DNA of 64,000 nt from Taibaiella sp. (GCA_013815385.1 JACDGL010000012.1:18019-82018), one strand, 5' to 3'; shown: positions 12,988 through 57,747, numbered from the stretch's first letter. Numbers and translations: made by a program. Notes: generated by a model from the letters alone, not told the origin.

Positions 12988-13144
12988 CTTATAAAAGTAA
13001 ATTTTAGGTTTTGCTAAACCTAATGAAACGCTTTGCGGGCAGGCATTTCAGTGTATATTATTAATAGCGGAAAATTATTTTAAAAATATTTTTGGAAAAT
13101 TGAAAATCCTGCCATTATCTTTGTACCAGTTCTTTAAAGTAATG

Positions 13145-13258
13145 CTTATCAAGAAAGGCAGAGGGTTATGGCCCTGTGAAGCCTTAGCAACCTCCCCGGC
13201 GAAAGCCGAGAGCTGGTGCTAATTCCATCCTGAAGGAAACAATTTCGGGACAGATAAG
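13145..13258 (+). promoter_or_regulatory. SAM-I (S-box) riboswitch
   Basis: CTTATCAAGAAAGGCAGAGGG..GGCCC..GAAGCC..GCAACC....GGTGCTAATTCC....GATAAG carries the conserved S-box cores. P1 pairs CTTATC with GATAAG. It lies upstream of Met-pathway genes. Confidence 0.9.
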
Positions 13259-13306
13259 TCAGATGCAAAAGTTTGAAAAAGCACGCTCATGCGTTCTACA
13301 TAACTG

Positions 13307-13340
13307 AAAGCTCCTCTGATTTTATCGGTGGAGCTTTTTT
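13307..13340 (+). terminator. intrinsic terminator / expression platform of the SAM riboswitch
   Basis: The stem pairs AAAGCTCC (13307-13314) with GGAGCTTT (13330-13337). The right arm runs into a 6-nt T tract (13335-13340). It lies between the aptamer and the first ORF. Confidence 0.7.
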
Positions 13341-13432
13341 CATTTTGAAGAAGCCCGCCGATAGACCTCTTTTGATAAGTGTTGCCATGCGAACCACTAA
13401 ACAAATTCGTAACCACAAAAAAATCAAAAGAT

Positions 13433-14614
13433 ATGAGCAACGCTACCAAACTGATCCACAGCATTCCGGTCGATCCCCTTACAGGTTCTATTTCAGTACC
13501 AATTTACCAGACCTCTACATTTGTTCAGGAAGCTCCTGGAGAGAACAAAGGATATGACTATGCGCGAAGTAACAATCCTACACGTGCTGTATTGGAAAAA
13601 ATAATAGCTGACCTGGAAGGTGGCGCTACCGGTGCTGCATTTGCGAGTGGCCTTGCTGCTATTGATGCTGTGGTAAAGCTATTGCAGAGTGGCGATGAGA
13701 TACTGGCAGTAGATGATATATACGGCGGTGCGTTCCGCCTGTTTACCCATATCTATGCAAAATTCGGCATCAAAATAAATTACGTGGATACAACTGATGT
13801 AGCCAATGTAATAGATGCACTGACACCACAAACAAAATTGATATGGCTGGAAACACCAACGAATCCTACTCTTAAAATAAGTGACATAGAATCGATAGCT
13901 AAAATAGCGCAACAGAATAAAATACTGCTTTGTGTGGACAGCACCTTTGCTTCGCCCGCATTGCAGCAGCCTATAGCGCTGGGTGCTGATATAGTAGTGC
14001 ATAGCGCTACGAAGTACCTGGGTGGACATAGCGACCTGATAGCGGGCCTGGTAGTGTGTAAAACACAGGAATTGGGTGACCAGATAAAATTTATACAGAA
14101 TGCCAGCGGCGCTATACTATCGCCTAATGATAGCTGGCTGGTGATACGTGGTATAGAAACCCTGCACCTGCGTGTGCAGCAGCATTGCCGCAATGCACAA
14201 GCAGTAGCTGAATTCCTTGTTGACCACCCGGCTATAGACAAGGTTTATTATCCCGGCCTGAAGGAACACCACAATCATCATATAGCGGCAAAGCAACAAA
14301 GCGGTTTTGGCGGTATCATTTCGTTTACACTTAAAGAAGATACGGAGCTGGCTGCTAAGAATGTAGTATGCGGTACCCAATACTTTAAACTGGCGGAGAG
14401 CCTGGGTGGAGTAAAAAGCCTACTGTGCCATCCTGCTACTATGACCCACAAATCAATACCTGCGCAAACGCGCCAGGCAGCCGGTGTAGCCGATAGCCTG
14501 ATAAGACTGAGTGTAGGACTTGAAGATGTGCAAGACCTTATACAGGATATTGATATAGCACTAACAAAAACGTTACAGAAAAATAGAGTGGTAGCAGAAG
14601 CAAATGCTGCATAA
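13433..14614 (+). CDS. PLP-dependent trans-sulfuration enzyme (cystathionine gamma-synthase / beta-lyase family)
   Basis: The ORF track starts at GTG 13379, but the ATG at 13433 gives MSNATKLIHSIPVDPLTGSISVPIYQTSTF, a typical Cys/Met-metabolism PLP enzyme N-terminus. HSATKYLGGHSD contains the PLP lysine motif. Confidence 0.88.
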   Translation: MSNATKLIHSIPVDPLTGSISVPIYQTSTFVQEAPGENKGYDYARSNNPTRAVLEKIIADLEGGATGAAFASGLAAIDAVVKLLQSGDEILAVDDIYGGAFRLFTHIYAKFGIKINYVDTTDVANVIDALTPQTKLIWLETPTNPTLKISDIESIAKIAQQNKILLCVDSTFASPALQQPIALGADIVVHSATKYLGGHSDLIAGLVVCKTQELGDQIKFIQNASGAILSPNDSWLVIRGIETLHLRVQQHCRNAQAVAEFLVDHPAIDKVYYPGLKEHHNHHIAAKQQSGFGGIISFTLKEDTELAAKNVVCGTQYFKLAESLGGVKSLLCHPATMTHKSIPAQTRQAAGVADSLIRLSVGLEDVQDLIQDIDIALTKTLQKNRVVAEANAA

Positions 14615-14662
14615 CTATCAACAAATAATTTAATACTGTTCAGCAAATAAAACTTTTAAGAA

Positions 14663-15922
14663 ATGTCTATCAGAAATCAGCAAACCAAATTGAATATCGG
14701 CCTTTTCGGCTTTGGAGTGGTAGGCGAAAGCCTGTATAAAGTATTGCTTAATAATGCTTCGCTCAATGCACAGATCAAGAAAGTATGTATCAAGCACCCC
14801 GGCAAAAAACGCAATGCACCGCAGGAATTATTTACTACCGATGCGGATGCATTGCTACAGGATGAAAGCATAAATGTAATAGTGGAGCTAATAGATGATG
14901 CAGATGCAGCATACACTATTGTTACCACAGCGCTGAAAAGTAAGAAGGCAGTAGTAAGCGCTAATAAGCGAATGATAGCAGAGCACCTGGCAGAACTGCT
15001 GGACCTGCAGCAGCAATACAACTCACAATTCCTTTACGAGTCGGCATGTTGTGCCAGCATACCCGTGATCCGCAACCTGGAAGAGTACTATGATAACGAC
15101 CTGCTGCAGGGTATAAGCGGCATTGTAAATGGCTCTACCAATTATATCCTTACCCGAATATCAGAAGATAACCTAACTTTTAATGATGCACTGGCGCTTG
15201 CGCAACAGGAAGGCTTTGCGGAGAGCGATCCGGCTTTGGATATAGAAGGTATAGATGCGGTAAATAAACTAACCATACTATTAACGCATGCATACGGAGT
15301 AGTTACCGATCCCCAGCTAATAGTACATGCAGGCATAACACGCATAGATGAGCAGGATGCAACCTACGCTAAAGAGAAAGGCTACGGAATAAAACTGGTA
15401 GCGCATGCCAAAAAGCTGGATGATGGAAATATAGCGGCCTTTGTACTGCCACAATTCCTGAATAAGAACAGCCAGCTATACAATGTAAAGAATGAATATA
15501 ACGGGGTGATAATAGAAAGCGGACTGGCCGACAATCAATTCTTTTACGGCAAGGGTGCGGGTGGGTTTCCAACTGCATCGGCTGTGCTGAGCGACCTATC
15601 TGCCTTACGCTATGATTACCGGTATGAGTATAAGAAGCTACGCTACCAGCAGCCATCTGAGCTAACCAATGATTTTTACCTGCGGGTATATGTAAGCTTT
15701 GATGCATTGCTGCAGGTGCCGCACTCCATCTTTGAACGGATCGATGAGTGGAGCAGCAATAACAAGCGTTGTTCAGTAACGGGCGTCATCCATTTCTCGC
15801 GGCTGCTGAATAGTGACTGGTGGAAGAAGAAAGGAACGTCTCTGATATTGCTGCCTGATGCGTTTACTACTTATGAACCGCAAAGAGAAAAAATAGCCGA
15901 CCTTGAGTTAGCACTGGCCTAA
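14663..15922 (+). CDS. hom: homoserine dehydrogenase
   Basis: 419 aa. It has an NAD-binding N-terminus IGLFGFGVVGESLYKVL, the motifs NGSTNYILT and AESDPALDIEGIDAVNKL, and sits in Met-pathway context behind the S-box. Confidence 0.9.
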   Translation: MSIRNQQTKLNIGLFGFGVVGESLYKVLLNNASLNAQIKKVCIKHPGKKRNAPQELFTTDADALLQDESINVIVELIDDADAAYTIVTTALKSKKAVVSANKRMIAEHLAELLDLQQQYNSQFLYESACCASIPVIRNLEEYYDNDLLQGISGIVNGSTNYILTRISEDNLTFNDALALAQQEGFAESDPALDIEGIDAVNKLTILLTHAYGVVTDPQLIVHAGITRIDEQDATYAKEKGYGIKLVAHAKKLDDGNIAAFVLPQFLNKNSQLYNVKNEYNGVIIESGLADNQFFYGKGAGGFPTASAVLSDLSALRYDYRYEYKKLRYQQPSELTNDFYLRVYVSFDALLQVPHSIFERIDEWSSNNKRCSVTGVIHFSRLLNSDWWKKKGTSLILLPDAFTTYEPQREKIADLELALA

Positions 15923-46879: not shown

Positions 46880-48358
46880 TTAGGGGTTGGGGGTTTCAGG
46901 TATCGTCATCCATTTTTCCGTGTTCAGGTGGGTAACGCTTGTCTCTATGCCATAATGCGCATGCAGGTACGCTGCCATTTTTTCGGCGGCATACACACTC
47001 CTGTGTTGGCCGCCAGTGCAGCCAAATGATACGCTCAGTTGCTCAAAACCGCGCGCCAGGTAGTCTTCCACATTCAGCGATACCATGCTATAGGCATGGT
47101 CCATAAATTCAGGCATGCGGGTATCCCGCTCCAGGAATTGTATCACGGGTTCGTCCTTGCCGGTAAGGTGTTTGTAGTCAGCAAAGCGCCCGGGGTTCAG
47201 CAGGCCGCGGCAGTCAAATACATAGCCACCGCCATTGCTCCCTTTATCTTTGGGTATTCCGTTTTTATAAGAGAAGCTGCATATGTTTACCACCAGCTTT
47301 GCATCGGCTGCACGCTCAGGCTGGGTGTAGCGCTGCTGCATCTCTGGGGTGCATATGCGCTCCAGCAGGCCACGCAGCTCAGGGAATGCGGGCAGGTGCG
47401 GATGCGAAGCCAGGAAGCTTTCCAGGTTCTTTAGTGCAGGTGCTATGCTGGTTATAAAATGCTGCTTGTGCTGTAGTAGCCCGCGGAAACCATAAGCGCC
47501 CAGTACTTGTAGTAGGCGTACCAGTACGAACTGTGCATACCCACGGCGAAAGTGTATCTCATCCATGCGGGGCACATGCAGGTCGCTGAGGCAAGCTATG
47601 TAGCTGTTCACCAGGTCTTCGCGCCAGGCCTGCGGCAATTGTGCGCGCGCCTGCCATAGCAGCGATGCTATATCGTACTGCGGCGGGCCCTGCATTACGC
47701 CCTGGTAATCTATAAAGTACACCTTATCCTCGTGCAGCATTATATTGCGGCTCTGGAAGTCGCGGTACATAAGCACCTGCGGCTGTACATGGCCCAGCTC
47801 GCGGCTTAGCTGTTCCAGCTCGCTTATCAGTAATATTTTATCATAGGGTATCTGCTGCAGGTCGGCAAAGTAGTATTTAAAATACAGCAGGTCGCTCATT
47901 ATCGCTTTGTCATTAAACTGGGCCGATGCGAAACACTGTTTGTAGTCAGCCTCGCGGCCGGCTATCCATTGCACCTTTGCCAGTTGCTCCAGGCTCTTCT
48001 GGTAGTTCTTATGCACCTTATCGGTAAATCCTTCCTTCAGTACCTGGTCAAATAGGGTAGTGCTGCCAAGGTCCTGTTGCAGGTACATACGCCGGTCTTT
48101 GCTGGTAGCATATAGCTTCGGTACATTGATGCCGTGTTTCGCAAACAGGTTGGTGAAGTAAAAGAAAGTATTGTTCTCCGCTACATTAGCGTTGTAGGCT
48201 CCTATGGCGCTGTGTTTCCCTCCTTTTATCCGGTAGTACCGCCTGTCCGATCCTGATACCGCCAGCGCATCCACATGCTCCGGCATTTGTCCGTAGTGTT
48301 CTTCAAAAAGCTTTTCCAGTGTGCTTATTACCTGTGCCGATGATTTATTTACTGTCAT
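46880..48358 (-). CDS. fusion protein: AmgK-like aminoglycoside-phosphotransferase-fold kinase (N) plus RapZ C-terminal-like domain (C)
   Basis: The ATG at 48358 gives MTVNKSS.... The N-terminal half has SGSDRRYYRI and YRDFQSRNIML..IDYQG (APH/AmgK catalytic loop). The C-terminal half has FDCRGLLNPGR...LTGKDEPVIQFLE and FGCTGGQHRSVYAAEKMAAYL, which match the RapZ C-terminal domain. There is no Walker A motif. Confidence 0.8.
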   Translation of the reverse strand: MTVNKSSAQVISTLEKLFEEHYGQMPEHVDALAVSGSDRRYYRIKGGKHSAIGAYNANVAENNTFFYFTNLFAKHGINVPKLYATSKDRRMYLQQDLGSTTLFDQVLKEGFTDKVHKNYQKSLEQLAKVQWIAGREADYKQCFASAQFNDKAIMSDLLYFKYYFADLQQIPYDKILLISELEQLSRELGHVQPQVLMYRDFQSRNIMLHEDKVYFIDYQGVMQGPPQYDIASLLWQARAQLPQAWREDLVNSYIACLSDLHVPRMDEIHFRRGYAQFVLVRLLQVLGAYGFRGLLQHKQHFITSIAPALKNLESFLASHPHLPAFPELRGLLERICTPEMQQRYTQPERAADAKLVVNICSFSYKNGIPKDKGSNGGGYVFDCRGLLNPGRFADYKHLTGKDEPVIQFLERDTRMPEFMDHAYSMVSLNVEDYLARGFEQLSVSFGCTGGQHRSVYAAEKMAAYLHAHYGIETSVTHLNTEKWMTIPETPNP

Positions 48359-48857
48359 GTTGTTTCTTAGGGTACTCAAATAAAAATACCTGCTTCTCTG
48401 TGCGGCTAAAATCGCTCCAGTGCAGTCCATCAAATTTTGCGGCTACTGCACCGCAGGTAGGCATATTGTCTATCGTAAATTTGTGCGGCGCCAGGGAGTT
48501 TACAAAGGCCGTTATCCCCGGGTTGTGCGCCACCACATATACTGTTCCTACATTATCAGGCACGCCTGCTATCAGCTCTTCAAATACCGATGGTATGCAA
48601 TGGTACAGGGTCTCTTCCCATTGTATCTTCGCCTCATCATAGCCTGTGGCCTTTGCTATCTTTTTGGCTGTCTGCTTGGCTCTCCGTGCCGTGCTGGCTA
48701 TTACCAGGTCGGGCGGCACCTGCTGTTTTTTCAGCCGTTCACCTATTACCGGGGCATCCTGCTCGCCCCTTTCGTTAAGTGGCCTGTCAAAATCGCTTTG
48801 CAGCGGGTTGGCCCAGCTACTTTTTGCATGTCTTATTATTACTACAGTGCGTTGCAT
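48345..48857 (-). CDS. sixA: phosphohistidine phosphatase SixA (histidine phosphatase superfamily)
   Basis: 170 aa. VVIIRHAKSSW...RPLNERGEQDA (RHG motif) and VAHNPG are present. Its last 14 nt overlap the downstream kinase-fusion gene. Confidence 0.83.
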   Translation of the reverse strand: MQRTVVIIRHAKSSWANPLQSDFDRPLNERGEQDAPVIGERLKKQQVPPDLVIASTARRAKQTAKKIAKATGYDEAKIQWEETLYHCIPSVFEELIAGVPDNVGTVYVVAHNPGITAFVNSLAPHKFTIDNMPTCGAVAAKFDGLHWSDFSRTEKQVFLFEYPKKQHDSK

Positions 48858-48860
48858 CTC

Positions 48861-49619
48861 CTACTTCGCTTTATAATATTTCAGTTGCAATTCCTTTCCG
48901 TCATATACCGCGTAGCTGTCGTATTTCAGCCAGTCGCCCAGGTTCACATACAGGCTGTTTTGCGGCAGGGGGTATTCTATGGCCAGGTGCCGGTGCCCAA
49001 AGAGGAAATAGTCCACATGCTCCCGCTTCAGTACATCCAGGCTATACTGTATCAGCCATTCTTTCTCGGGCCCCAGAAATAATGCCTCCCCGGTATCGTG
49101 CTTTGGCCCCATCCTGCTAAACCATCCCGCCACGCCTAGCCCTGTTACCGGGTGTATGCGGCGGTACAGCCATTGCGATAGTGGGCTGCGCAGCACCTTC
49201 TTCAGCAGCTTGTAGCCGTGGTCGCCTGGCCCCAGGCCATCGCCGTGCGCTATTAAAAATTTTTTGCCGTTATACTCGCGGCGCAGGGGTGCGTGGTGTA
49301 CAGGTATATTCATCTCGTCCTCAAAGTAGCCGCGCATCCACAGGTCGTGGTTGCCGGTAAATACTTCTATTTGCAGGCCACCATCGCTTAGTTCTGCCAG
49401 CTTGCCCAGAAAGCGGGTATAGCCCTTGGGCACCACGTTCCGGTATTCAAACCACACATCAAACAGGTCGCCCACCAGGTATAGCGCGGCGGCATCGGCC
49501 TTTATCTCATCCAGCCACTGGCATATGCGTTTTTCCCGCGCCAGGCTACCCTCCTTATCAGGTAAGCCCAGGTGAAAATCGGACGCGAAATATACTTTTT
49601 TGCCTATGGGTAACTGCAT
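48861..49619 (-). CDS. lpxH: UDP-2,3-diacylglucosamine diphosphatase
   Basis: The ATG at 49619 gives MQLPIGKKVYFASDFHLG. LVGDLFDVWFEY, GNHD and FGHRH are calcineurin-like LpxH motifs. Confidence 0.9.
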   Translation of the reverse strand: MQLPIGKKVYFASDFHLGLPDKEGSLAREKRICQWLDEIKADAAALYLVGDLFDVWFEYRNVVPKGYTRFLGKLAELSDGGLQIEVFTGNHDLWMRGYFEDEMNIPVHHAPLRREYNGKKFLIAHGDGLGPGDHGYKLLKKVLRSPLSQWLYRRIHPVTGLGVAGWFSRMGPKHDTGEALFLGPEKEWLIQYSLDVLKREHVDYFLFGHRHLAIEYPLPQNSLYVNLGDWLKYDSYAVYDGKELQLKYYKAK

Positions 49620-49762
49620 GGAATCCGCTAATGGGGAGCAAAGGTAAGCCAAAACTCCAATGTCAGGAATAGAAATGCTTTGCACTTAGCTTACATCTTA
49701 CTATTCGGCATCAGTTGCCACGCTCGCTTGTACGCTCAGTTCGCTGTGCAGCATACAAACAG

Positions 49763-49792
49763 TAAAAAACTCCCCTCTTTTCAAAGAGGGGA
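49763..49792 (-). terminator. hairpin with T-run on the minus strand (terminator at the left edge of the AT-rich island)
   Basis: TCCCCTCT-TTTCAA-AGAGGGGA, preceded on the plus strand by AAAAAA, which is the T-run on the minus strand. Confidence 0.55.
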
Positions 49793-49877
49793 TGCCGGTA
49801 AATAATGCGAAAGCTTATTTATCGGCTGGGGTGATTATCGCTAACATAGGCTTTACCGAACATATTACCTTTGTACT

Positions 49878-49955
49878 ATGGCGGATGTGCACGATAAAGC
49901 GACGAGGAGCTACAATAGGAGCCGGATAAAAGGCAAGAATATAAATGAAAAATAA
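49878..49955 (+). pseudogene. vsr: N-terminal remnant of a very-short-patch repair endonuclease gene (vsr)
   Basis: Hand translation gives MADVHDKATRSYNRSRIKGKNINEK then a stop. The first 11 residues equal the E. coli Vsr N-terminus as I remember it (MADVHDKATRSKNM...). The ORF stops after 25 codons and no dcm or rest of vsr is present. Confidence 0.72.
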
Positions 49956-49996
49956 ATTTCGGCAATGTAATCAATGATAAAGTCGGCTAAAAATTA

Positions 49997-50320
49997 TCAA
50001 ACTTGCGTATTTTTAAATAGTGCTGTGATATCTATATAGCTAGTTTGCTGGTTGCTTTTTGACACGCTCATATATTCATGCCATTCATGGTCTATAGCCT
50101 CATCCCAATATTTCAAATGCAGATCAGGTAAGTTCCATTCCTTAGCATTAAAGTAACAGCCATCTACAAAACATTGTTGTATTCTCCTTTCAATTTCTTC
50201 AAGAGACAATTTTAAGTTATTACTAAATATCACTTCGCCGTAATTCTTATTATTACCTGCATCTCGATACAGGTATTCAAAGCGAATAGATTCAGTTCTA
50301 TTTTCTAAAGATGTGCTCAT
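49997..50320 (-). CDS. hypothetical 107-aa acidic protein, third gene of the HNH cassette
   Basis: The ORF MSTSLENRTESIRFEYLYRDAGNNKNYGEVIF... overlaps the HNH gene stop by 23 nt. By my count it has about 17 D/E against 11 K/R. I recognise no family. Confidence 0.6.
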   Translation of the reverse strand: MSTSLENRTESIRFEYLYRDAGNNKNYGEVIFSNNLKLSLEEIERRIQQCFVDGCYFNAKEWNLPDLHLKYWDEAIDHEWHEYMSVSKSNQQTSYIDITALFKNTQV

Positions 50321-51065
50321 TATGATATTCTAAGAATTCTTTTCTCGGCAAGAATTTATGCGGTTTGATTATTGGCTTTTTGTCTATTGATATGAAGACG
50401 TTTTTAACCGTCAAATTGTTGTCTTTATTCTCGATCTGTTTTGAAACTCTAATCGTAAAATCTGGTAAAATAGTGATAAGCCCACAATCAAATGCCTTAT
50501 CATGAAGGGCATTGATACAAAGGCCATTTTCTGGATTGGTTCTATTCTCTTCATTCTTGCTCCACGGTATTATATGACTTGCGACTTGTAAGGCCGTTAT
50601 TTTCATCCCTGTAATACAACAGGTATTTTCATATGCTGCGAAAACAGCCTTCCTAAAAAAATCCTGATACACTCGGGTTTTTACGAAGCGTCTCCGATCT
50701 GCACCTCTAGGCAATTCCTTTTCGTCAATGTCTAGTACTTGCTCTATAGTCTCGTGTTTGTATTGTGCTATAAGTTCTGTGCTTGTTAAGGTTAACGCAT
50801 TCCAGTTTTCATGAAACTCATTCCATATTTCCTCGTCTAGCTTACTACGGTTAGGCAACCCACCTACATTTCTTCTTCTCAGTTCGGGGTCTAAGCTCCC
50901 GAAGTTGCCAAGTTTACGCGCTACAGCACTTGGAGTTCGTCCAATGATCTCAGCCACTTCTTGCACATTCTTATTACGCGAGTGTGCTTGCCCCCATGGA
51001 ATTTTGCAATACAAGTTGAAGGCAATAATTGTTTGTTCTCGTGTCCAAACATCTTTTCTTGGCAT
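50298..51065 (-). CDS. HNH endonuclease (HNH_2 / COG3183-like restriction-type nuclease) with an N-terminal HTH-like domain
   Basis: 255 aa. QDFFRKAVFAAYENTCCITGMKITALQVASHIIPWSKNEENRTNPENGLCINALHDKAFDCGLITI is the HNH_2 core. N-terminal VQEVAEIIGRTPSAVARKLGNFGSLDP looks like a helix-turn-helix. Confidence 0.85.
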   Translation of the reverse strand: MPRKDVWTREQTIIAFNLYCKIPWGQAHSRNKNVQEVAEIIGRTPSAVARKLGNFGSLDPELRRRNVGGLPNRSKLDEEIWNEFHENWNALTLTSTELIAQYKHETIEQVLDIDEKELPRGADRRRFVKTRVYQDFFRKAVFAAYENTCCITGMKITALQVASHIIPWSKNEENRTNPENGLCINALHDKAFDCGLITILPDFTIRVSKQIENKDNNLTVKNVFISIDKKPIIKPHKFLPRKEFLEYHNEHIFRK

Positions 51066-51068
51066 AAG

Positions 51069-51263
51069 CTAATCTTCTTCAGCTATAAATATATAACTAC
51101 ATGCCTTATTTAAGCAGATGTGCAATTGGAAATCTAATTTGGCGAGGGTTGTTTTTCCTTTAGGAGCTAACCTTTCAATAAAATCGGTTCTGGCTGCACA
51201 ATAAGGGCAGGTAGTTGGCTGGTCACCTATCAAGTAAGTTTTAAGGTCATTTTTCGTTATCAT
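51069..51263 (-). CDS. hypothetical 64-aa zinc-ribbon-like protein, first gene of the HNH cassette
   Basis: The ORF has CPYC (residues 19-22) and C-x4-C (HICLNKAC). It ends 3 nt before the HNH gene start. Confidence 0.55.
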   Translation of the reverse strand: MITKNDLKTYLIGDQPTTCPYCAARTDFIERLAPKGKTTLAKLDFQLHICLNKACSYIFIAEED

Positions 51264-51473
51264 TTGCCAAAGTTACAAAGGTCTCCTTGCGCTGACAATC
51301 GGTTATAAGTGAACTTTTGGCTTTTAAATGTGGATATCTTCCTCTTGGAAAACCCACCTTCTCTATCGTATCTTGCACGTAGCCCATAAAGGCCTAAACC
51401 CATAGAACCGATCCCTATCAAAAATGCAATTTCTATCAGATGTATATTTCCCAGCTTCGTTACACTCCAGGAG

Positions 51474-51741
51474 GCAAACTTCCGTTTTCACCCCAAATTT
51501 CCGCCGGAAGTTTCACCCTTAAACCCCGTACCAGTAACCATATAATAATAACCCCTAACGGAAGTTTGCGGAAGTTTGAGCAGAACCATCGTATAGTTTA
51601 CCGGGTTGCACCAAATTTCCATTCCTACCCACTAAACCCCACCGGAAGTTTGAAACCAAAAACCATCAAACAATCGCCCATGGCTACGCATAATAATCCG
51701 ATCATATTTCTGCTAACGGAAGTTTGCGGAAGTTTCACCGA
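51474..51741. repeat. array of CGGAAGTTT(G/C) motifs: 6 direct copies, 1 inverted copy and 2 inverted near-copies, including two tandem 10-bp doublets
   Basis: CGGAAGTTT occurs at 51505, 51559, 51569, 51643, 51717 and 51727, with an inverted copy at 51476-51484. The 23-nt exact direct repeat CTAACGGAAGTTTGCGGAAGTTT occurs at 51555-51577 and 51713-51735. CCAAATTTCC occurs twice at about 51493-51502 and 51611-51620; its reverse complement is GGAAATTTGG. Confidence 0.85.
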
Positions 51742-51866
51742 AAAGTAGTCAACTGCATGAATACTCTGCCCGCCCTATCCTATCTATCAAAATAAATTTA
51801 TAATTTTGTTTATATAGTTGTTTTTCAGAATGCTATTTATTATATAAAATTTTAAGCTGTTACTAT

Positions 51867-52733
51867 TTGTCCACAAAGTTGTTCTCCATTAAGGAACTGG
51901 AAGCGTTCTCTGACCTAAAGGCACACACCATAAGAGTTTGGGAAAGCAGGTATGCTGTATTGAGCCCCGAGCGAAGCGCGGGCAACCTGCGCCGCTACTC
52001 GCTGGCCGAGGTGAGGCGCCTGCTGCGCTGCGCCCTGCTGACGGCCAATGGCTACCGTATATCGGCCATAGCTAAGCTCGAGGATGACCAGTTGGAGGAA
52101 CGAATAGCATTACTCACCAGCGACAGCGCAGTACAGACTAAGGCGCTGAACCGACTGATAATAAGCATGTTCAGCAACAAGGTAGAGGACTTTGAAGCGA
52201 CACTGGATAATTGCCTGTTCACCTTTGATATAGATGTAACGATACAGCACATCATCATCCCGTTTTTGGAGAAAGTGCATCTGCTATCGTATAAGGATGG
52301 CAGTGGCGAGGTGCACCTGGCAGTAACTGCTATACGGAAGAAAATAATACTGGGCATAGAGAGCATTGGCAATGAGCATAAAGATGGGAAGACGGCAGTG
52401 CTCTTTCTCCCCAAGGATGAGCACTACGATCTGATACTGCTGTACCTGGCCTATATGCTGAAAAAAAATGGCGTGCATGTCATATATATGGGCACCAACA
52501 TACCCAGAGAAAGCCTGGGTGAGATACTGACCAGCAGGCAGCCCGACTATGTATGCACCTATGTGCTCCCAAGGCGTACCAAAAGCGTGGAGAGTTATAT
52601 AGGTTACCTGCGCGAGGGGTTCCCCGATATAAAGATATTAGTGGCCACACAGGAAGAGCACCACACCGAGCGGCGGGAGCACGGCGCTACCTATATTAAC
52701 TACAAGGATGCAGGAAAGTATATAACTGCGTAG
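51867..52733 (+). CDS. MerR family transcriptional regulator with a C-terminal B12-binding-like domain (CarH/LitR-like)
   Basis: 288 aa with an apparent TTG start. The MerR HTH reads FSIKELEAFSDLKAHTIRVWESRYAVLSPERSAGNLRRYS. The C-terminal Rossmann-like segment reads AVLFLPKDEHYDLILLYLAYMLKKNGVHVIYMGTNIP. Confidence 0.78.
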   Translation: MSTKLFSIKELEAFSDLKAHTIRVWESRYAVLSPERSAGNLRRYSLAEVRRLLRCALLTANGYRISAIAKLEDDQLEERIALLTSDSAVQTKALNRLIISMFSNKVEDFEATLDNCLFTFDIDVTIQHIIIPFLEKVHLLSYKDGSGEVHLAVTAIRKKIILGIESIGNEHKDGKTAVLFLPKDEHYDLILLYLAYMLKKNGVHVIYMGTNIPRESLGEILTSRQPDYVCTYVLPRRTKSVESYIGYLREGFPDIKILVATQEEHHTERREHGATYINYKDAGKYITA

Positions 52734-52806
52734 GGTGTACTGTTAATAGCAAATAAAAACGCCACACTATCAAATTAGCGTGGCGCATTTATAAGAGTAT
52801 CTCAGA

Positions 52807-54786
52807 CTAATCTACCTTGATCCATTTCAGCGATTGTTTTTCTGCGCCTGTGTTAATGCTGATGGTATAGATACCGCTAACAAGGTTATGAACATCTATA
52901 GGTATCACCGTGCTGCCTGCGGATACTTTGTGAGCAGCGCTAAGTACCTGCCTGCCATCGTTACCTATAATAGTGATAGAAGCCGTAGCTCCGGTATTAA
53001 TAGTAAGCCGGATATTGAGGTAGGTAGTGGCCGGATTAGGATACAGGGTAAAGAATGTAGCAGATGGGGTATTGCTGACTGCCAGGCGCTGATACCTTAC
53101 AGTGGCAGAATCGGTAACGCCAATGCCGAGGTTATAATAACTGCCGGATGGTGTCTGTTGTAATTTTATAGGGCGTACCATATAATACTTCAACCCATTG
53201 ACCGGTAATGATGCGCCGGAATCGTGGAAGGATATGCCGGTAACGGGAGCACGGGTAATAAGCAGGTAATTGCCAAACATGCTATCACTACGGTAAATAT
53301 TATAGCCGGTTACCGCAGGGTCGGGGGATGCAACCCAGGTAATATCTGCCCCCAATAATGGCGCCGTAGTGGCAGTAGCATGTACTGAGGTAACAGGCTT
53401 TATATAATCTGTACGCAGGGTAGGGTCACCCATCAACGCTACATGTACCCAGCCATTGCCGTAACCGGTAGGGATGTAGGAAGAATTATTTTGCGTAACC
53501 ATAGCGGAATAGCCGATGTGCCAGCCCAGCGCCATATGGTGCATGAACCAGTTAGGCCTGCCTGCCCAGCAGGAGGTGAGCGCAGGCACATCGGAACACA
53601 ATGGCGCACGAAGAAAATTATCGGGTGAGTTCCAGTCGCCAAAGTAACTACCGAACATAAGGGTAAAGATGGCGTTGACATGATTGGTAGCAAAATTTGA
53701 AGTGCTCCCGACGCCGCTTGCGCTATTGAACGAACCCCCACCGCATGCATATGCCCACTGATAAGTGGAATCATTGAGCGAAGCAATAAAGGGTATAGAC
53801 TGTATATTGCCAGCGCCTACCATAGGTGGGAAAATGCGCCAGCCATTAGCCGCAAATGCCTCACCGCCAAATGCACCGAAATGGTCGTCAATGAGCGCGC
53901 GATGCACCATCAGCAGAGAATCCATTTTGTACTGGTGGGCTTTTATAAGATAGCTGCGCATCATCTGCACTTCGGTCTTGCTGAAAGAGGGCATATTAGC
54001 AAAGTCAACCCGGCCTACACCCAGCTTCTGCGCCGTAGGGATAGCGGTCTGGTCCCACTTGCCATCACCCGGGCGGTTGCGGTTTGCAGCATAGCCGGCG
54101 CTGGTATCTGTGTAGAGATCAGTCCAGGTGCCATTCATATTGCCATAGTAGGCATCTGCAGGCCAGGCACCCAGGTGGTTTGGATGTCCGTCAGGATTCA
54201 GGTCGCCACTATAGGGTACCGCTATATGGCCAAGTATGTACACAGCGCTTACCACATTGAAGTAATTAAAGTAATCGGCGATAATAGCATTGCGAATAAT
54301 ACTATCGCGTGTGGTACGGGCATAGTCATGACGGATTACCTGCCAGCCATCGCCGCTCATATCCTGCATTAACTGGTGAATGAGCGCCGAACAGGAATCG
54401 CTGAAAGTAGAATCGACCAGCAAAACGAGGGAGCCTCGGGTATGTATAGGGGGCGCCTGGATGCCGGCATAAATATATCCCGCAGCACCTGGGCCACCAA
54501 GCTGCACCACCTTATACTCGTAGGCAGAATCGGTATGTACAGTTACATCAGTATAGGTGGTATCGGTAATATTGGTGCCTGTACCCCATGCGGCAGTAGA
54601 TATAAGTTTCCTATAAATGGTGTAGGTGGTAACACCGGTTATTTTCCTCCAGGTAAGGGTAACCTTTGCAGGTGAAGCCTGCACGCTGGCTGATAGCTGT
54701 ACTGCATAGTCGCTGGTGGCCTGTGCATTTGCAGATGTAGCAAATAACAGGCAAACTATTATTGAAAGGGTGTAGCGCTGCAACAT
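52807..54786 (-). CDS. T9SS type A C-terminal sorting domain protein with Fn3-like domains and a central domain, possibly C25/gingipain-like
   Basis: 659 aa with a signal peptide and Fn3-like segments (VTLTWRKITGVTTYTIYRK; ADITWVASPDPAVTGYNIYRS). The C-terminus FFTLYPNPATTYLNIRL...LVSGIYTISINTGAEKQSLKWIKVD is a Por secretion tail. The protease-like assignment is weak. Confidence 0.78.
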   Translation of the reverse strand: MLQRYTLSIIVCLLFATSANAQATSDYAVQLSASVQASPAKVTLTWRKITGVTTYTIYRKLISTAAWGTGTNITDTTYTDVTVHTDSAYEYKVVQLGGPGAAGYIYAGIQAPPIHTRGSLVLLVDSTFSDSCSALIHQLMQDMSGDGWQVIRHDYARTTRDSIIRNAIIADYFNYFNVVSAVYILGHIAVPYSGDLNPDGHPNHLGAWPADAYYGNMNGTWTDLYTDTSAGYAANRNRPGDGKWDQTAIPTAQKLGVGRVDFANMPSFSKTEVQMMRSYLIKAHQYKMDSLLMVHRALIDDHFGAFGGEAFAANGWRIFPPMVGAGNIQSIPFIASLNDSTYQWAYACGGGSFNSASGVGSTSNFATNHVNAIFTLMFGSYFGDWNSPDNFLRAPLCSDVPALTSCWAGRPNWFMHHMALGWHIGYSAMVTQNNSSYIPTGYGNGWVHVALMGDPTLRTDYIKPVTSVHATATTAPLLGADITWVASPDPAVTGYNIYRSDSMFGNYLLITRAPVTGISFHDSGASLPVNGLKYYMVRPIKLQQTPSGSYYNLGIGVTDSATVRYQRLAVSNTPSATFFTLYPNPATTYLNIRLTINTGATASITIIGNDGRQVLSAAHKVSAGSTVIPIDVHNLVSGIYTISINTGAEKQSLKWIKVD

Positions 54787-55815: not shown

Positions 55816-57747
55816 ATGTATATCCGGCGACAAACCATATTCCTGTTTTTATTGTTCGCGGTATTCCGTTCCTTGGCGCAGCAGCCTGAAACGGATAAGA
55901 AACTCCCTGCCCGTATCCTTATCCTGCTTGATGAATCATCGAGCATGGTAGAAAACTGGGGCGCTAATAAGCCACGGTACAAAGCAGCAGGTGAAGTGAT
56001 ATTGCATCTGATGGACAGCATTTACACAATAGATCCTGATGTAGAGTTTGGCCTTCGCGTATTTGGCCACCAGTTTACCGTACCGGAGCATAATTGCTAT
56101 GATACCAGGCGCGAGGTAATGTTCAGCAAAGACAACCGCACACAAATGATGCTGCGCCTTGCGGATATACATCCGCTGGGGGTAACGCCTATCGCCTACG
56201 CACTAAAGGAAGCTGCGGAGAATGATATGACCGATGAAACCCGATACGCCTACAGCATAGTGTTGATAACAGACGGCGGGGAAAGCTGCGGCGGTGATAT
56301 TTGCGATGTAGTAAAAAAGCTGCTTGAGAAAAAGATATACTTTAAACCATACATTGTAAGTCTGGTAGATTATGCCCCCCTGCGTACTGAATACGCCTGT
56401 CTTGGCCATTATCTGCAGGCGACTACTGAAAAGGAAATGGTGACTACGATCGATTCTATAGTTAAAGCATTTACTCCTGCGCTGACACTTACTCCTAAGC
56501 AATACCAGAAATTTATAGAAACAGGGGTACCGCCTGCCATATCATCCATACCTGTACCACGTATCTCCTCATCGCCCAGGGTAGAGGTAACAAAGACTAT
56601 AAATGTGCCGTCTGTTATAACTGCACCTGAGCCACCGCCGCATGTTTCCATCAATACTATTGCGTTTTCATTACAGAGGCCCTTACCGGGTGCAAGCTAT
56701 GTGCCACCTTACTTTGCTCCGGTTCGTATACCGGGTGTTGTGTTGCCAGCAAGAGCGCCTGAACTGATACCTGCAATTAATACAAAGCAACCAAAGCCGG
56801 TAATAATAGCTAACACCAAACAGGATATAACCCCAAAAACAATTGAGGGAACTATAGCCCAGCCGCCTGTACCTAAGCCAGTCCCATTGCCGCCGGCACC
56901 TAAACCCAAACCAGTAGTTGTAGCTCCAAAACCTAAGCCAAAAACCGTAGCAGTAACCACACCACCTAAGAAAGAAGAAAAATTTATTCCATACGGAATA
57001 TCGAGTACTGATGCCAAAGAAACTATTGTAGAAATATTTTTAGAAGACGGTAAGGGCAATTTTTTCAGTAGCACCCCGCAAATGGCATTTATCGATCCGC
57101 ACACAGGTAATACTGTAAAAACATTTTATCGAACCCTGGATGGTAATAGATACCCAGATCCACAAAATGTGCCACCAGGTACTTATAATCTGATGTTTCT
57201 TAAAAGTAAGCGTGTTGCAAAAGGTATCGTAATTGAGGCCAATAAACATAATGATGTTATATTAACACTTCACAACGGCTCCCTTAGTTTTGCCTATCCA
57301 AATCCTGACCGTCCGGTAAGTGAATTTACCGCCATTGTGACGCATAGGGAAATGGGCGGAAAGCAAATAAAACAGAATTGCACCGCTGTGCTAGAATATG
57401 AACCCGGCAATTACCATATATCTGTAAACACGATGCCCCCTAAGGAATTTAATGTGGATCTGGACCTGGATAATGAAACCGTTATCCCTATACCGGAGCC
57501 CGGCTATATACAGTTCACGAATACTAATCCCCTGGGTAAGGTGCAGCTTTACTGTGTATTGGGCGACCAGTTTTTGAAGTTTTATACAATGGATATCAGC
57601 GGTGCGCCCGGTACACAAAAACTACAATTGCTACCGGGTTTATACAAGGTGCATTTTCCTAAGAATGCTAAAATGCCAACCCTATCTGAATCAGTATTGG
57701 ATTTCAGGGTAGACAGCAACCAAACCACTGAACTGGAAATAAAATAA
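55816..57747 (+). CDS. von Willebrand factor type A (vWA) domain protein with a Pro/Lys-rich linker
   Basis: 643 aa with a signal peptide and MIDAS-type ILILLDESSSM...TPIAYAL...LITDGGESCGG. The linker reads PVPKPVPLPPAPKPKPVVVAPKPKPK and is followed by a beta-rich C-terminal region. Confidence 0.8.
   Translation: MYIRRQTIFLFLLFAVFRSLAQQPETDKKLPARILILLDESSSMVENWGANKPRYKAAGEVILHLMDSIYTIDPDVEFGLRVFGHQFTVPEHNCYDTRREVMFSKDNRTQMMLRLADIHPLGVTPIAYALKEAAENDMTDETRYAYSIVLITDGGESCGGDICDVVKKLLEKKIYFKPYIVSLVDYAPLRTEYACLGHYLQATTEKEMVTTIDSIVKAFTPALTLTPKQYQKFIETGVPPAISSIPVPRISSSPRVEVTKTINVPSVITAPEPPPHVSINTIAFSLQRPLPGASYVPPYFAPVRIPGVVLPARAPELIPAINTKQPKPVIIANTKQDITPKTIEGTIAQPPVPKPVPLPPAPKPKPVVVAPKPKPKTVAVTTPPKKEEKFIPYGISSTDAKETIVEIFLEDGKGNFFSSTPQMAFIDPHTGNTVKTFYRTLDGNRYPDPQNVPPGTYNLMFLKSKRVAKGIVIEANKHNDVILTLHNGSLSFAYPNPDRPVSEFTAIVTHREMGGKQIKQNCTAVLEYEPGNYHISVNTMPPKEFNVDLDLDNETVIPIPEPGYIQFTNTNPLGKVQLYCVLGDQFLKFYTMDISGAPGTQKLQLLPGLYKVHFPKNAKMPTLSESVLDFRVDSNQTTELEIK

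Follow-up and report, generated by a model that had tools for sequence, protein, structure and literature searches.

A small HNH_2 nuclease islet beside a vsr remnant in a Taibaiella genome, and the recurrence of its family at broken C5-methyltransferase loci

In a 64,000-nucleotide stretch of a Taibaiella sp. genome (the window; C28:18019-82018 of a 3.25-Mb genome in 39 contigs, 43.2% GC), an AT-rich segment lies between lpxH and a gene for a MerR-type regulator with a B12-binding domain. The original prediction described it as a 2.2-kb insertion, a defence-island-like hotspot at which one nucleic-acid-targeting module of the dcm/vsr type had been replaced by another. The predicted contents are all present: a vsr stub, a three-gene HNH cassette and a dense array of short repeats. 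The best explanation that we can offer, and one that we regard as somewhat better than an even bet, is that about 1.5 kb (~49,800-51,325) represents a small, old, horizontally acquired restriction-type islet, built around a putatively modification-dependent HNH nuclease (HNH255) and linked to the displacement of a C5-methylase. The segment consists of three parts, namely the lpxH promoter zone with a terminator and the vsr stub (49,620-49,996), the HNH operon (49,997-51,263) and a repeat element (51,326-51,760). The claimed length does not hold, since the right ~540 bp are the native repeat element and the AT-rich promoter of the MerR gene, and "defence island" overstates what is a single operon with no further defence genes beside it, for which islet is the better word. 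Here and below, C numbers denote contigs of this genome and L numbers the loci and contigs compared with it.

The working part of the islet would be the operon g64-HNH255-g107 (Table 1), transcribed from its own promoter and closed by an intrinsic terminator. The stop codon of g64 lies 3 nt from the start of HNH255, and g107 overlaps the stop of HNH255 by 23 nt. TAnnTTTG is the Bacteroidota-type -7 promoter consensus, and the box TAacTTTG in front of g64 is the likely promoter of the operon. At the other end, the terminator stands ~205 nt 3' of g107 and separates the operon from lpxH, so the operon should not read into that gene. Residues 149-199 of HNH255 match Pfam HNH_2 (E 7e-10), and over its full length (residues 2-254) the protein matches the PADLOC candidate model PDLC04132, 'HNH' (E 4e-92); its score of 67.6 bits against NCBIfam PT-DNA_restrict, a model for phosphorothioate-dependent restriction, is under that model's cut-off of 180. 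A profile search of the PDB gave VcaM4I (6YEX) as the sole match (E 2e-17, positions 113-213). In a structural model built on a 29-sequence alignment (predicted local distance difference test, pLDDT, 90.7), six N-terminal helices, which make up residues 1-110 with pLDDT above 83, are followed by a beta-beta-alpha nuclease, and VcaM4I (1e-4) and TagI (0.026) are at the top of the Foldseek list. H164, N180 and H188 are invariant across 29 HNH-family sequences, and the HNH (beta-beta-alpha-metal) nuclease core, with its catalytic His/Asn/His, is intact. The operon is under purifying selection: against an 87%-identical relative (L040), the ratio of nonsynonymous to synonymous divergence (dN/dS) is 0.07 for HNH255, 0.26 for g64 and 0.40 for g107.

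The known enzymes closest to this nuclease suggest what it might cut. Modification-dependent HNH enzymes include VcaM4I, an EVE-HNH protein (PDB 6YEX; PMC7897488), TagI, an SRA-HNH protein (PDB 6GHS; PMC6212794), and the SBD-HNH proteins ScoMcrA and SprMcrA (PMC7461809), and a solitary gene without an adjoining methyltransferase is the neighbourhood signature that has been used to argue for modification dependence (PMC6765204). HNH255 resembles VcaM4I, TagI and ScoMcrA in its two-domain layout with a C-terminal HNH_2 nuclease, and in being solitary with no methyltransferase beside it; its nuclease domain is homologous to that of VcaM4I by profile (E 2e-17), with 24% identity in Foldseek. In contrast to these enzymes, HNH255 has an all-helical N-terminal domain unlike their reader folds, and it is accompanied by g64 and g107, partners that the characterised VcaM4I-type enzymes do not have. 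No open reading frame (ORF) in the segment encodes a methyltransferase, and the locus does not have the adjacent cognate protecting methyltransferase of a Type II system. In the whole genome there is no match to PF00145 (C5-methyltransferase) or PF02384, and PF01555 and PF02086 match only fragments on other contigs. We propose that the N-terminal domain of HNH255 would read a feature of the DNA, most likely cytosine methylation, and that the nuclease would cut incoming DNA carrying that modification. Such an enzyme would need no protecting methyltransferase, which fits a genome without a C5-methyltransferase. The family is already catalogued in PADLOC-DB as a candidate defence gene, PDLC04132, in an entry that carries no description, mechanism or partner genes.

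A second line of evidence comes from the 25-codon ORF (MADVHDKATRSYNRSRIKGKNINEK) that lies beyond g107. A search of 177,635 PDB sequences gave E. coli Vsr (1CW0) as the best match, with its residues 1-17 aligned to residues 2-18 of the stub and the first ten identical; the E value is only 0.37 because the query is very short. Full-length Vsr genes, and other stubs that adjoin HNH genes, share 67-86% identity with the stub at their N-termini, and the first 21 codons of the stub fit the N-terminal segment of Vsr (MADVH.K.TRS.NMS.IK.K.TKPE). It is preceded by a -7 box, and the vsr stubs of other genomes have promoter-like sequence in the same place. The catalytic core of Vsr (PF03852, including the FVHGCFWH zinc/catalytic region) gave no match at the stub in a six-frame, stop-tolerant search of the genome and of translated pieces, and the Pfam Vsr search is silent at 49,690-49,990 because the stub is too short for the model. 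On these comparisons we interpret the ORF as the scar of a vsr pseudogene. Elsewhere in the window, a weak Vsr match at 55,819-55,923 is antisense to the start of a vWA gene and contains a stop; it was taken as chance.

A vsr remnant beside this cassette is not peculiar to the window. In Pfam tallies of the ORFs around 80 species-representative HNH loci, those upstream include Vsr (8), DNA_methylase (C5; 6) and DUF559/MTES_1575 (3), and those downstream include RE_HpaII (7) and DNA_methylase (3). By tblastn, ~20 loci have vsr-related sequence no more than ~1 kb from the HNH gene, and a single-query search places a C5-methyltransferase at 9 of the 80, with ~85% having none within 4 kb. Where such a methyltransferase adjoins, it is usually cut at the HNH boundary. 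Two loci have its N-terminal part upstream of the HNH gene and its C-terminal part downstream (L178, L180), and three retain N-terminal stumps only (L155, L183, L208). N-terminal vsr stubs of 7-38 codons stand beside the cassette in a further six (L123, L192, L194, L201, L204, L209). The cassette mostly stands 3' of vsr and may point either way; only 5' stubs of vsr survive because the cassette occupies that side, which is the methylase's place in operons of the order vsr-methylase-restriction gene (V-M-R). A Mucilaginibacter locus (L172) has g64-HNH-g107 followed by a convergent, intact vsr, which by sequence comparison would be the layout of the window before decay, and vsr and cassette may have arrived in the window together. 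Between two Ferruginibacter genomes that are syntenic around the cassette, ~450 bp of vsr have been lost in one.

A metagenome scaffold from ENA (L123:4074-4725) carries three tandem units of ~125-260 bp, each combining a promoter-like sequence with a vsr 5' stub ~25-31 codons long. Directly 3' of them are a g64-HNH pair and an RE_HpaII-like fragment, and a scaffold gap in one copy leaves the number of units uncertain.

The most instructive of these loci for comparison with described systems is in Neisseria gonorrhoeae, where the stretch between pheS and pheT contains Vsr, a C5-methyltransferase cut down to its first 67 positions, a 113-aa ORF and an HNH_2 gene. The product of the latter, intact and 249 aa long, is 44% identical to HNH255 over 97% of its length. 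In the sequence that we used (L221:3950-5741, NZ_CP119142.1, a 2.17-Mb chromosome filed in a plasmid collection), the HNH_2 gene follows V.NgoAXIII and the truncated M.NgoAXIII stump. The NgoAXIII remnant of gonococci has been described as Vsr plus an inactive methylase, and in some meningococci NmeDI follows VSR instead (PMC6789123); in N. meningitidis NmeDI has been placed between pheS and pheT (PMC7973814; also PMC2095814). The HNH gene is nowhere mentioned in the account of gonococcal restriction systems in PMC6789123. In the gonococcal remnant, as in the window, an HNH_2 gene stands beside vsr, there with the broken C5-methyltransferase as well, and the window also resembles the NgoAXIII/NmeDI site in that alternative restriction cargo is found between lineages, between housekeeping genes; in the gonococcus the 113-aa ORF stands in the position of g64. 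The difference is one of degree of decay, since in Neisseria vsr is intact and active and the broken methylase is visible as a stump, whereas here vsr is a 25-codon scar with no trace of a methylase. A relationship of HNH255 to R.NmeDI itself was rejected on length alone (351 aa for R.NmeDI, PMC2095814, against 249 aa for the gonococcal HNH_2 protein).

These neighbourhoods suggest an order of events. The vsr stub would be the remnant of a module of vsr plus a C5-methyltransferase, and the cassette would have displaced the methylase of that module, whether here or, before transfer, in a donor. A nuclease directed against methylated cytosine would presumably be tolerated only where the resident methylase is destroyed. 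With 5-methylcytosine (5mC) gone, vsr would have had no function and would have been deleted down to its 5' end, its decay being explained by the loss of the methylase that made 5mC. The predicted replacement of a dcm/vsr-type module is in this sense supported in kind by the recurrent neighbourhood of vsr and broken methylases, while displacement in situ and displacement in the donor are indistinguishable. The closest parallel is drg, the 'dam replacing gene' of Neisseria, a restriction endonuclease gene at the locus of the dam methylase (PMC516771; PMC6789123). Both cases have a nuclease gene at the locus of a displaced methyltransferase, so that the making of a mark is swapped for an attack on it; both are without mobility genes, and both loci are polymorphic between lineages. 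In contrast, drg stands in place of an adenine methylase, and its product, which recognises GATC, is unrelated to HNH255, whereas the gene displaced here would be a C5-cytosine methylase beside vsr, for which the vsr stub is the sole evidence in the window.

A wider and distinctly more doubtful proposal, which we make tentatively, is that g64-HNH_2-g107 is a widespread 'C5-methylase-replacing' cassette, that is, a 5mC-dependent nuclease with a new type of all-helical reader that can establish itself only by destroying the resident C5-methyltransferase gene. If this were true, the constraint would explain why across phyla the cassette lies 3' of vsr and by methylase stumps and HpaII-type nuclease fragments. 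It would also explain the decay of vsr to 5' stubs, with examples spanning this Chitinophagaceae genome and the NgoAXIII remnant of N. gonorrhoeae. The cassette would then be the cytosine-methylation counterpart of the dam-replacing gene, and the overwriting of restriction systems by their own antagonists would have a general mechanism.

Horizontal acquisition is suggested by how the family is distributed. HNH255 has more than 3,000 homologues in seven phyla; within its own bacterial family they occur, one copy each, in only 22 of 150 other genera and are absent from the five nearest relatives by lpxH. Identity to HNH255 is 41-60% within the family and no lower, at 49-53%, in Acidobacteriota, Ignavibacteriota, Chloroflexota and Nitrospirota. 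The nearest homologues, from Flavipsychrobacter (64-67% identity), stand in different genomic contexts. An 81-sequence tree requires at least 13 changes of phylum against a minimum of 6. The patchy distribution and a phylogeny incongruent with the species tree are what would be expected of a genomic island. In Mucilaginibacter and Lacibacter the full g64-HNH-g107 cassette likewise forms an islet of 31-38% GC amid housekeeping genes of 42-49% GC, without mobility genes.

Composition points in the same direction. The hand counts behind the original prediction were exact (21/60 G+C at 50341-50400, 35/60 at 49201-49260 and 37/60 at 52021-52080), and in a 300-nt sliding plot G+C falls from 0.50-0.59 in lpxH to 0.31-0.43 at ~49,850-51,950 and recovers to 0.48-0.54 over the MerR gene. 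Part of the apparent sharpness comes from the flanking genes, whose G+C is unusually high for this genome: at third codon positions (GC3), lpxH has a value at the 99.4th percentile among long ORFs, while the MerR/B12 gene is at the 99.1st and a kinase-RapZ fusion gene at the 97.9th. These native flanks (46880-49685 and 51867-52733) have GC3 values of 0.61-0.64, 0.64 in lpxH, which exaggerates the apparent drop. Inside the segment G+C is not uniform either, the repeat element at 51326-51760 having 43.2%, the same as the genome mean. The cassette genes are more distinctive, with GC3 of 0.30 (g107), 0.37 (HNH255) and 0.33 (g64), the 2.5th, 14.5th and 4.7th percentiles of the genome's ORFs, and the codon-adaptation value of HNH255 is at the 3rd percentile of the genome. 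An island-like composition is therefore found in the cassette genes and shows only modestly when the whole segment is considered, so that composition alone is a weaker argument than first appeared. The codon-usage check thus agrees with the predicted foreign origin of the cassette, as do its patchy family, the seven phyla and the changes in the tree; for the repeat element, which is native, a foreign origin does not hold.

The cassette does not look like a recent arrival. The closest relative found by LpxH has 81% identity, apart from a 3.9-kb contig (L040, Logan ERR11523670) that matches window 50,003-53,381 at 87% nucleotide identity. It has the order type IX secretion system (T9SS) gene - MerR - repeat element - g64 - HNH - g107, and the homology ends exactly at the stop codon of g107. 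Beyond it, L040:3454-3921 encodes a predicted secreted protein of 26-31% GC without a homologue in this genome. The content left of g107 thus varies between close relatives, and the cassette goes with the MerR side. For HNH255 the synonymous divergence (dS) from L040 is 0.44 and for the MerR gene 0.53, and a cassette shared at a flank-like dS predates the split of the two lineages and is an old resident. A dN/dS value for the T9SS gene fragment was discarded, the alignment being out of frame with 9 stops.

On the lpxH side, the empty site was sought in 40 relatives, with the MerR gene examined in 10 of those, in 80 metagenome lpxH loci and at the best LpxH homologue (81%). lpxH is the first gene of a conserved lpxH-sixA-kinase/RapZ-C operon, and the order lpxH-sixA-kinase is kept in five genus-level relatives and ~22 metagenome loci (LpxH identity 68-79%). 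The gene upstream of lpxH is different in every relative examined. The MerR/B12 gene adjoins lpxH in none of the 10 genus-level relatives and in none of the metagenome loci, and neither it nor the cassette was found upstream of lpxH in any relative searched. An insertion between lpxH and the MerR gene is therefore not demonstrable as predicted, since the 5' end of lpxH is a synteny breakpoint in every relative and the empty site cannot be defined; the comparison across relatives yielded alternative content only beyond g107, in L040. In the best LpxH relative (81%, Logan contigs, L217), a metC-like gene and a 141-aa gene directly precede lpxH, and orthologues of this metC-like block lie at window 13,083-15,091. 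Here the block (13083-15091) and the lpxH side (46982-49623) are 34.5 kb apart, with their order swapped and orientation kept relative to L217, which we read from the gene order as a translocation-type rearrangement with one breakpoint at the 5' end of lpxH.

Several observations weigh against the interpretation as an acquired, modification-dependent islet. The overall G+C of the segment (38.5% over 2,177 bp) is no more than mildly atypical, at the 7th percentile of equal-sized genome windows, with 118 further regions of the genome matching it or nearly so. Signs of mobility are wanting, as had been predicted: the ORF list of the segment contains no integrase-like or transposase-like gene, and the whole 64-kb window contains no tRNA. 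Exact direct repeats shared by the two boundary zones reach 11 nt at most, in an AT-rich sequence whose length is equalled in 7% of shuffles, and inverted repeats reach 9 nt, equalled in 55%, so that no att-like repeats above chance were found at the boundaries. Neither an empty site nor a target duplication nor a vehicle came to light, and near-full-length homologues lie only on a single true plasmid, from Hymenobacter, and in a small phage-like record that has no annotation. The N-terminal ~110 aa of HNH255 match no known reader (PUA/EVE, SRA, SBD or winged helix) in Pfam, PDB profile or Foldseek searches, and no recognised reader domain, DUF3427 included, is fused to the nuclease, so that the case for modification dependence rests on the nuclease subfamily and the gene neighbourhood, not on a recognised sensor. 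In two loci (L145, L161) vsr has the same strand as the HNH gene and lies downstream of it, an exception to the rule that the cassette lies 3' of vsr. Finally, seemingly complete C5-methyltransferase or RE_HpaII genes stand beside some homologues (L159, L187; RE_HpaII match E 6e-128), and intact methylase neighbours are awkward for a 5mC-dependent nuclease unless the specificities differ.

It is also conceivable that the cassette works otherwise, for example as a toxin-antitoxin or abortive infection system. HNH255 would then be a non-specific DNase restrained by g107 in the manner of a colicin immunity protein, g64 would be a sensor or regulator, and phage infection would free the nuclease and kill the cell. 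The overlap between HNH255 and g107 suggests translational coupling, and an acidic g107 (isoelectric point, pI, 5.0) beside a basic HNH255 (pI 9.1) would suit such a pair. So would the conserved core of g107, which has no known fold: the alignment of its homologues (a word-based search yielded only 7 proteins) has 13 invariant residues, no match was found in Pfam, NCBIfam or PADLOC, and its AlphaFold model (pLDDT 84) found none in the PDB by Foldseek (best E 1.4). g64 weakly resembles part of PtuB, the HNH component of Septu (its PADLOC matches are PtuB-like only, E 5e-4), and among the lower-ranking Foldseek matches of HNH255 are the Septu PtuAB complex and HNH effectors associated with retrons. 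However, of 86 loci only 9 have a g107 homologue directly 3' of the HNH gene and ~19 a g64 homologue directly 5' of it, and the persistence of most homologues without them does not allow g107 the role of an obligate antitoxin. g107 is, moreover, the least constrained of the three genes, HNH255 has none of the delivery domains of colicin-type DNases beyond its helical and HNH domains, and the strong link to vsr, C5-methyltransferase and HpaII-type genes would be unexpected for a generic toxin-antitoxin pair. We consider this explanation unlikely.

Improbable, too, in our judgement is that HNH255 is the orphaned endonuclease of a Type II system of the vsr-M-R kind, which would have lost its methylase and been kept through weak expression, rare or protected sites, or redeployment. 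That a 'Type II restriction enzyme' HNH model is the second PADLOC match (E 1e-40) would fit, as would the order V - M (truncated) - HNH in N. gonorrhoeae and L155 and the C5-methyltransferase directly upstream in L159. A lone active Type II nuclease would be expected to be lethal, though, and yet HNH255 is intact under a dN/dS of 0.07 in a genome with no C5-methyltransferase, like the large majority of the loci, which have none nearby. The methylase in L126 is already partnered by a separate, NgoFVII-type nuclease, and adjoining methylases are mostly interrupted where they meet the HNH gene.

The missing mobility genes and the recurrent adjacency to vsr would both be explained by a selfish, homing-type cassette whose HNH nuclease cuts cassette-free vsr/methylase operons and is copied in by repair. 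The same kind of target is indeed used in several phyla, in both orientations and always without an integrase or transposase, and the three tandem promoter-plus-stub copies upstream of the cassette in L123 could be seen in this light. Against homing, the breakpoints in vsr are scattered (codons 7, 13, 21-22, 25-28, 32-34, or past the end of an intact gene), no 3' part of vsr was ever found on the far side of the cassette, and most family members have neither vsr nor a methylase nearby. Selection alone explains the pattern if only methylase-killing insertions are tolerated, and we accordingly think homing very improbable. Least credible is that nothing here is foreign and that intergenic and promoter DNA with three small native genes lies between unusually GC-rich operons: the mild G+C percentile, the native right third with its element and promoter, and the closest relative's cassette at a flank-like dS would agree with this, whereas a family found in only 15% of sister genera and not in the nearest ones, cross-phylum identities (50-53%) as high as those to most in-family homologues (41-54%), a tree with many phylum changes, the same cassette as a low-GC islet in unrelated genomes and a vsr pseudogene that marks a decayed restriction-type locus all speak against it.

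As an object, the islet in the window is ordinary, a small, old locus with a solitary restriction-type nuclease; the cross-phylum pattern to which it led is more useful. An HNH_2 family that has so far been an unnamed defence candidate repeatedly sits where restriction systems with cytosine methylases are broken, and the neighbouring vsr decays. Should the dependence on methylation be true, the family would provide a new reader domain for modified DNA, would explain many of the "orphan vsr" genes and vsr stubs in annotations, and would be a second, cross-phylum case of a methylase replaced by a nuclease that targets its mark.

Table 1. Features of the lpxH-to-MerR interval and its flanks, in window coordinates.
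Feature	Position	Strand	Evidence
lpxH, native left flank	48861..49619	-	NCBIfam lpxH and Pfam Metallophos matches
-7 box TAccTTTG, upstream of lpxH start	49639..49646	-	TAnnTTTG pattern scan; consensus match only
Intrinsic terminator: 9-bp stem, 4-nt loop, T-run	49771..49792	-	Terminator scan
-7 box TAccTTTG, 4 nt 5' of vsr stub ATG	49866..49873	+	Pattern scan
vsr stub, 25-codon ORF	49878..49955	+	PDB search and comparison with other loci
g107, 107-aa acidic protein, last operon gene	49997..50320	-	ORF list
HNH255: all-helical N-terminal domain and C-terminal HNH_2 nuclease	50298..51065	-	Pfam HNH_2
g64, 64-aa Zn-ribbon protein (Cys19, Cys22, Cys50, Cys55), first operon gene	51069..51263	-	ORF list
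-7 box TAacTTTG, 5 nt 5' of g64 ATG	51268..51275	-	Pattern scan; consensus match only
Repeated promoter/leader element, ~1.5 units	51326..51760	+	Motif counts, nhmmer, synteny in L040
-7 box TAatTTTG, ~60 nt 5' of MerR/B12 gene, in 24% GC spacer	51801..51808	+	Pattern scan, composition
Regulator with MerR-HTH and B12-binding domain, CarH/LitR-like, right flank	51867..52733	+	Pfam MerR_1, E 1e-12

With regard to the flanks, the longest lpxH ORF begins at a GTG at 49685, and in all relatives the alignment sets in only at residue 22-23. An ATG at 49619 is probably the true start; it gives a protein of 252 aa and is favoured by where these alignments begin and by the -7 box upstream of it. On the other side, the MerR/B12 gene scores 28.3 bits with Pfam B12-binding, under the cut-off, and 57 bits with NCBIfam CarH, whose cut-off is 400.

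The repeat element in front of the MerR/B12 gene has a conserved, promoter-like head of GTGGATATCTT..TTTGGAAA..TAGTATCTTGCA, then a variable stretch, and then AAACTTCCG, CGGAAGTTT, ATAT and the doublet CGGAAGTTTGCGGAAGTTT. Seven exact copies of CGGAAGTTT lie at 51476-51735 against 0.31 expected by chance, and the genome has 103 copies in ~25 clusters. Iterated nhmmer searches found 24 full-length copies of the element in the genome (for example at C5:60342-60556, C7:6825-7005, C23:260670-260849 and C35:209134-209317), and in 20 of the 24 a same-strand ORF of more than 200 aa begins 2-371 nt 3' of the element. Most of these ORFs look housekeeping-like, as judged by eye only (fusA, ffh, prs, uppS, frr, der, dnaE, dnaX, yidC, the aconitase gene acn, hflX and a heme A synthase-like gene). 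The doublet CGGAAGTTTGCGGAAGTTT has 30 copies in this genome and none in 40 relatives of other genera and families, and the element stands in the same position in the close relative L040. An Rfam search of 49,600-52,000 at E up to 5 gave no match to it. It is thus a native, lineage-specific promoter/leader that belongs to the upstream region of the MerR/B12 gene and is not cargo, and the foreign part of the segment therefore shrinks to ~1.5 kb. About a quarter of the supposed insertion is in this way assigned to a native repeat that precedes some two dozen housekeeping operons. The largest motif array, with its seven copies, is the one in front of the MerR/B12 regulator gene, and the 10-bp tandem motifs could be an operator for that regulator. 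A mobile promoter is an alternative view of the element.

Low-GC islets may tend to adjoin the upstream side of these elements: 7 of the 24 have at most 38% GC in the 1.5 kb upstream, where fewer than 2 would be expected from the genome-wide distribution. One such stretch, C23:260850-263449, is an islet of 34-37% GC between two divergent copies of the element, one of which precedes dnaE. It encodes two proteins, one of 499 aa with a glycine loop like that of kinases and one of 200 aa with a HELGH motif, and may be another small acquired module.

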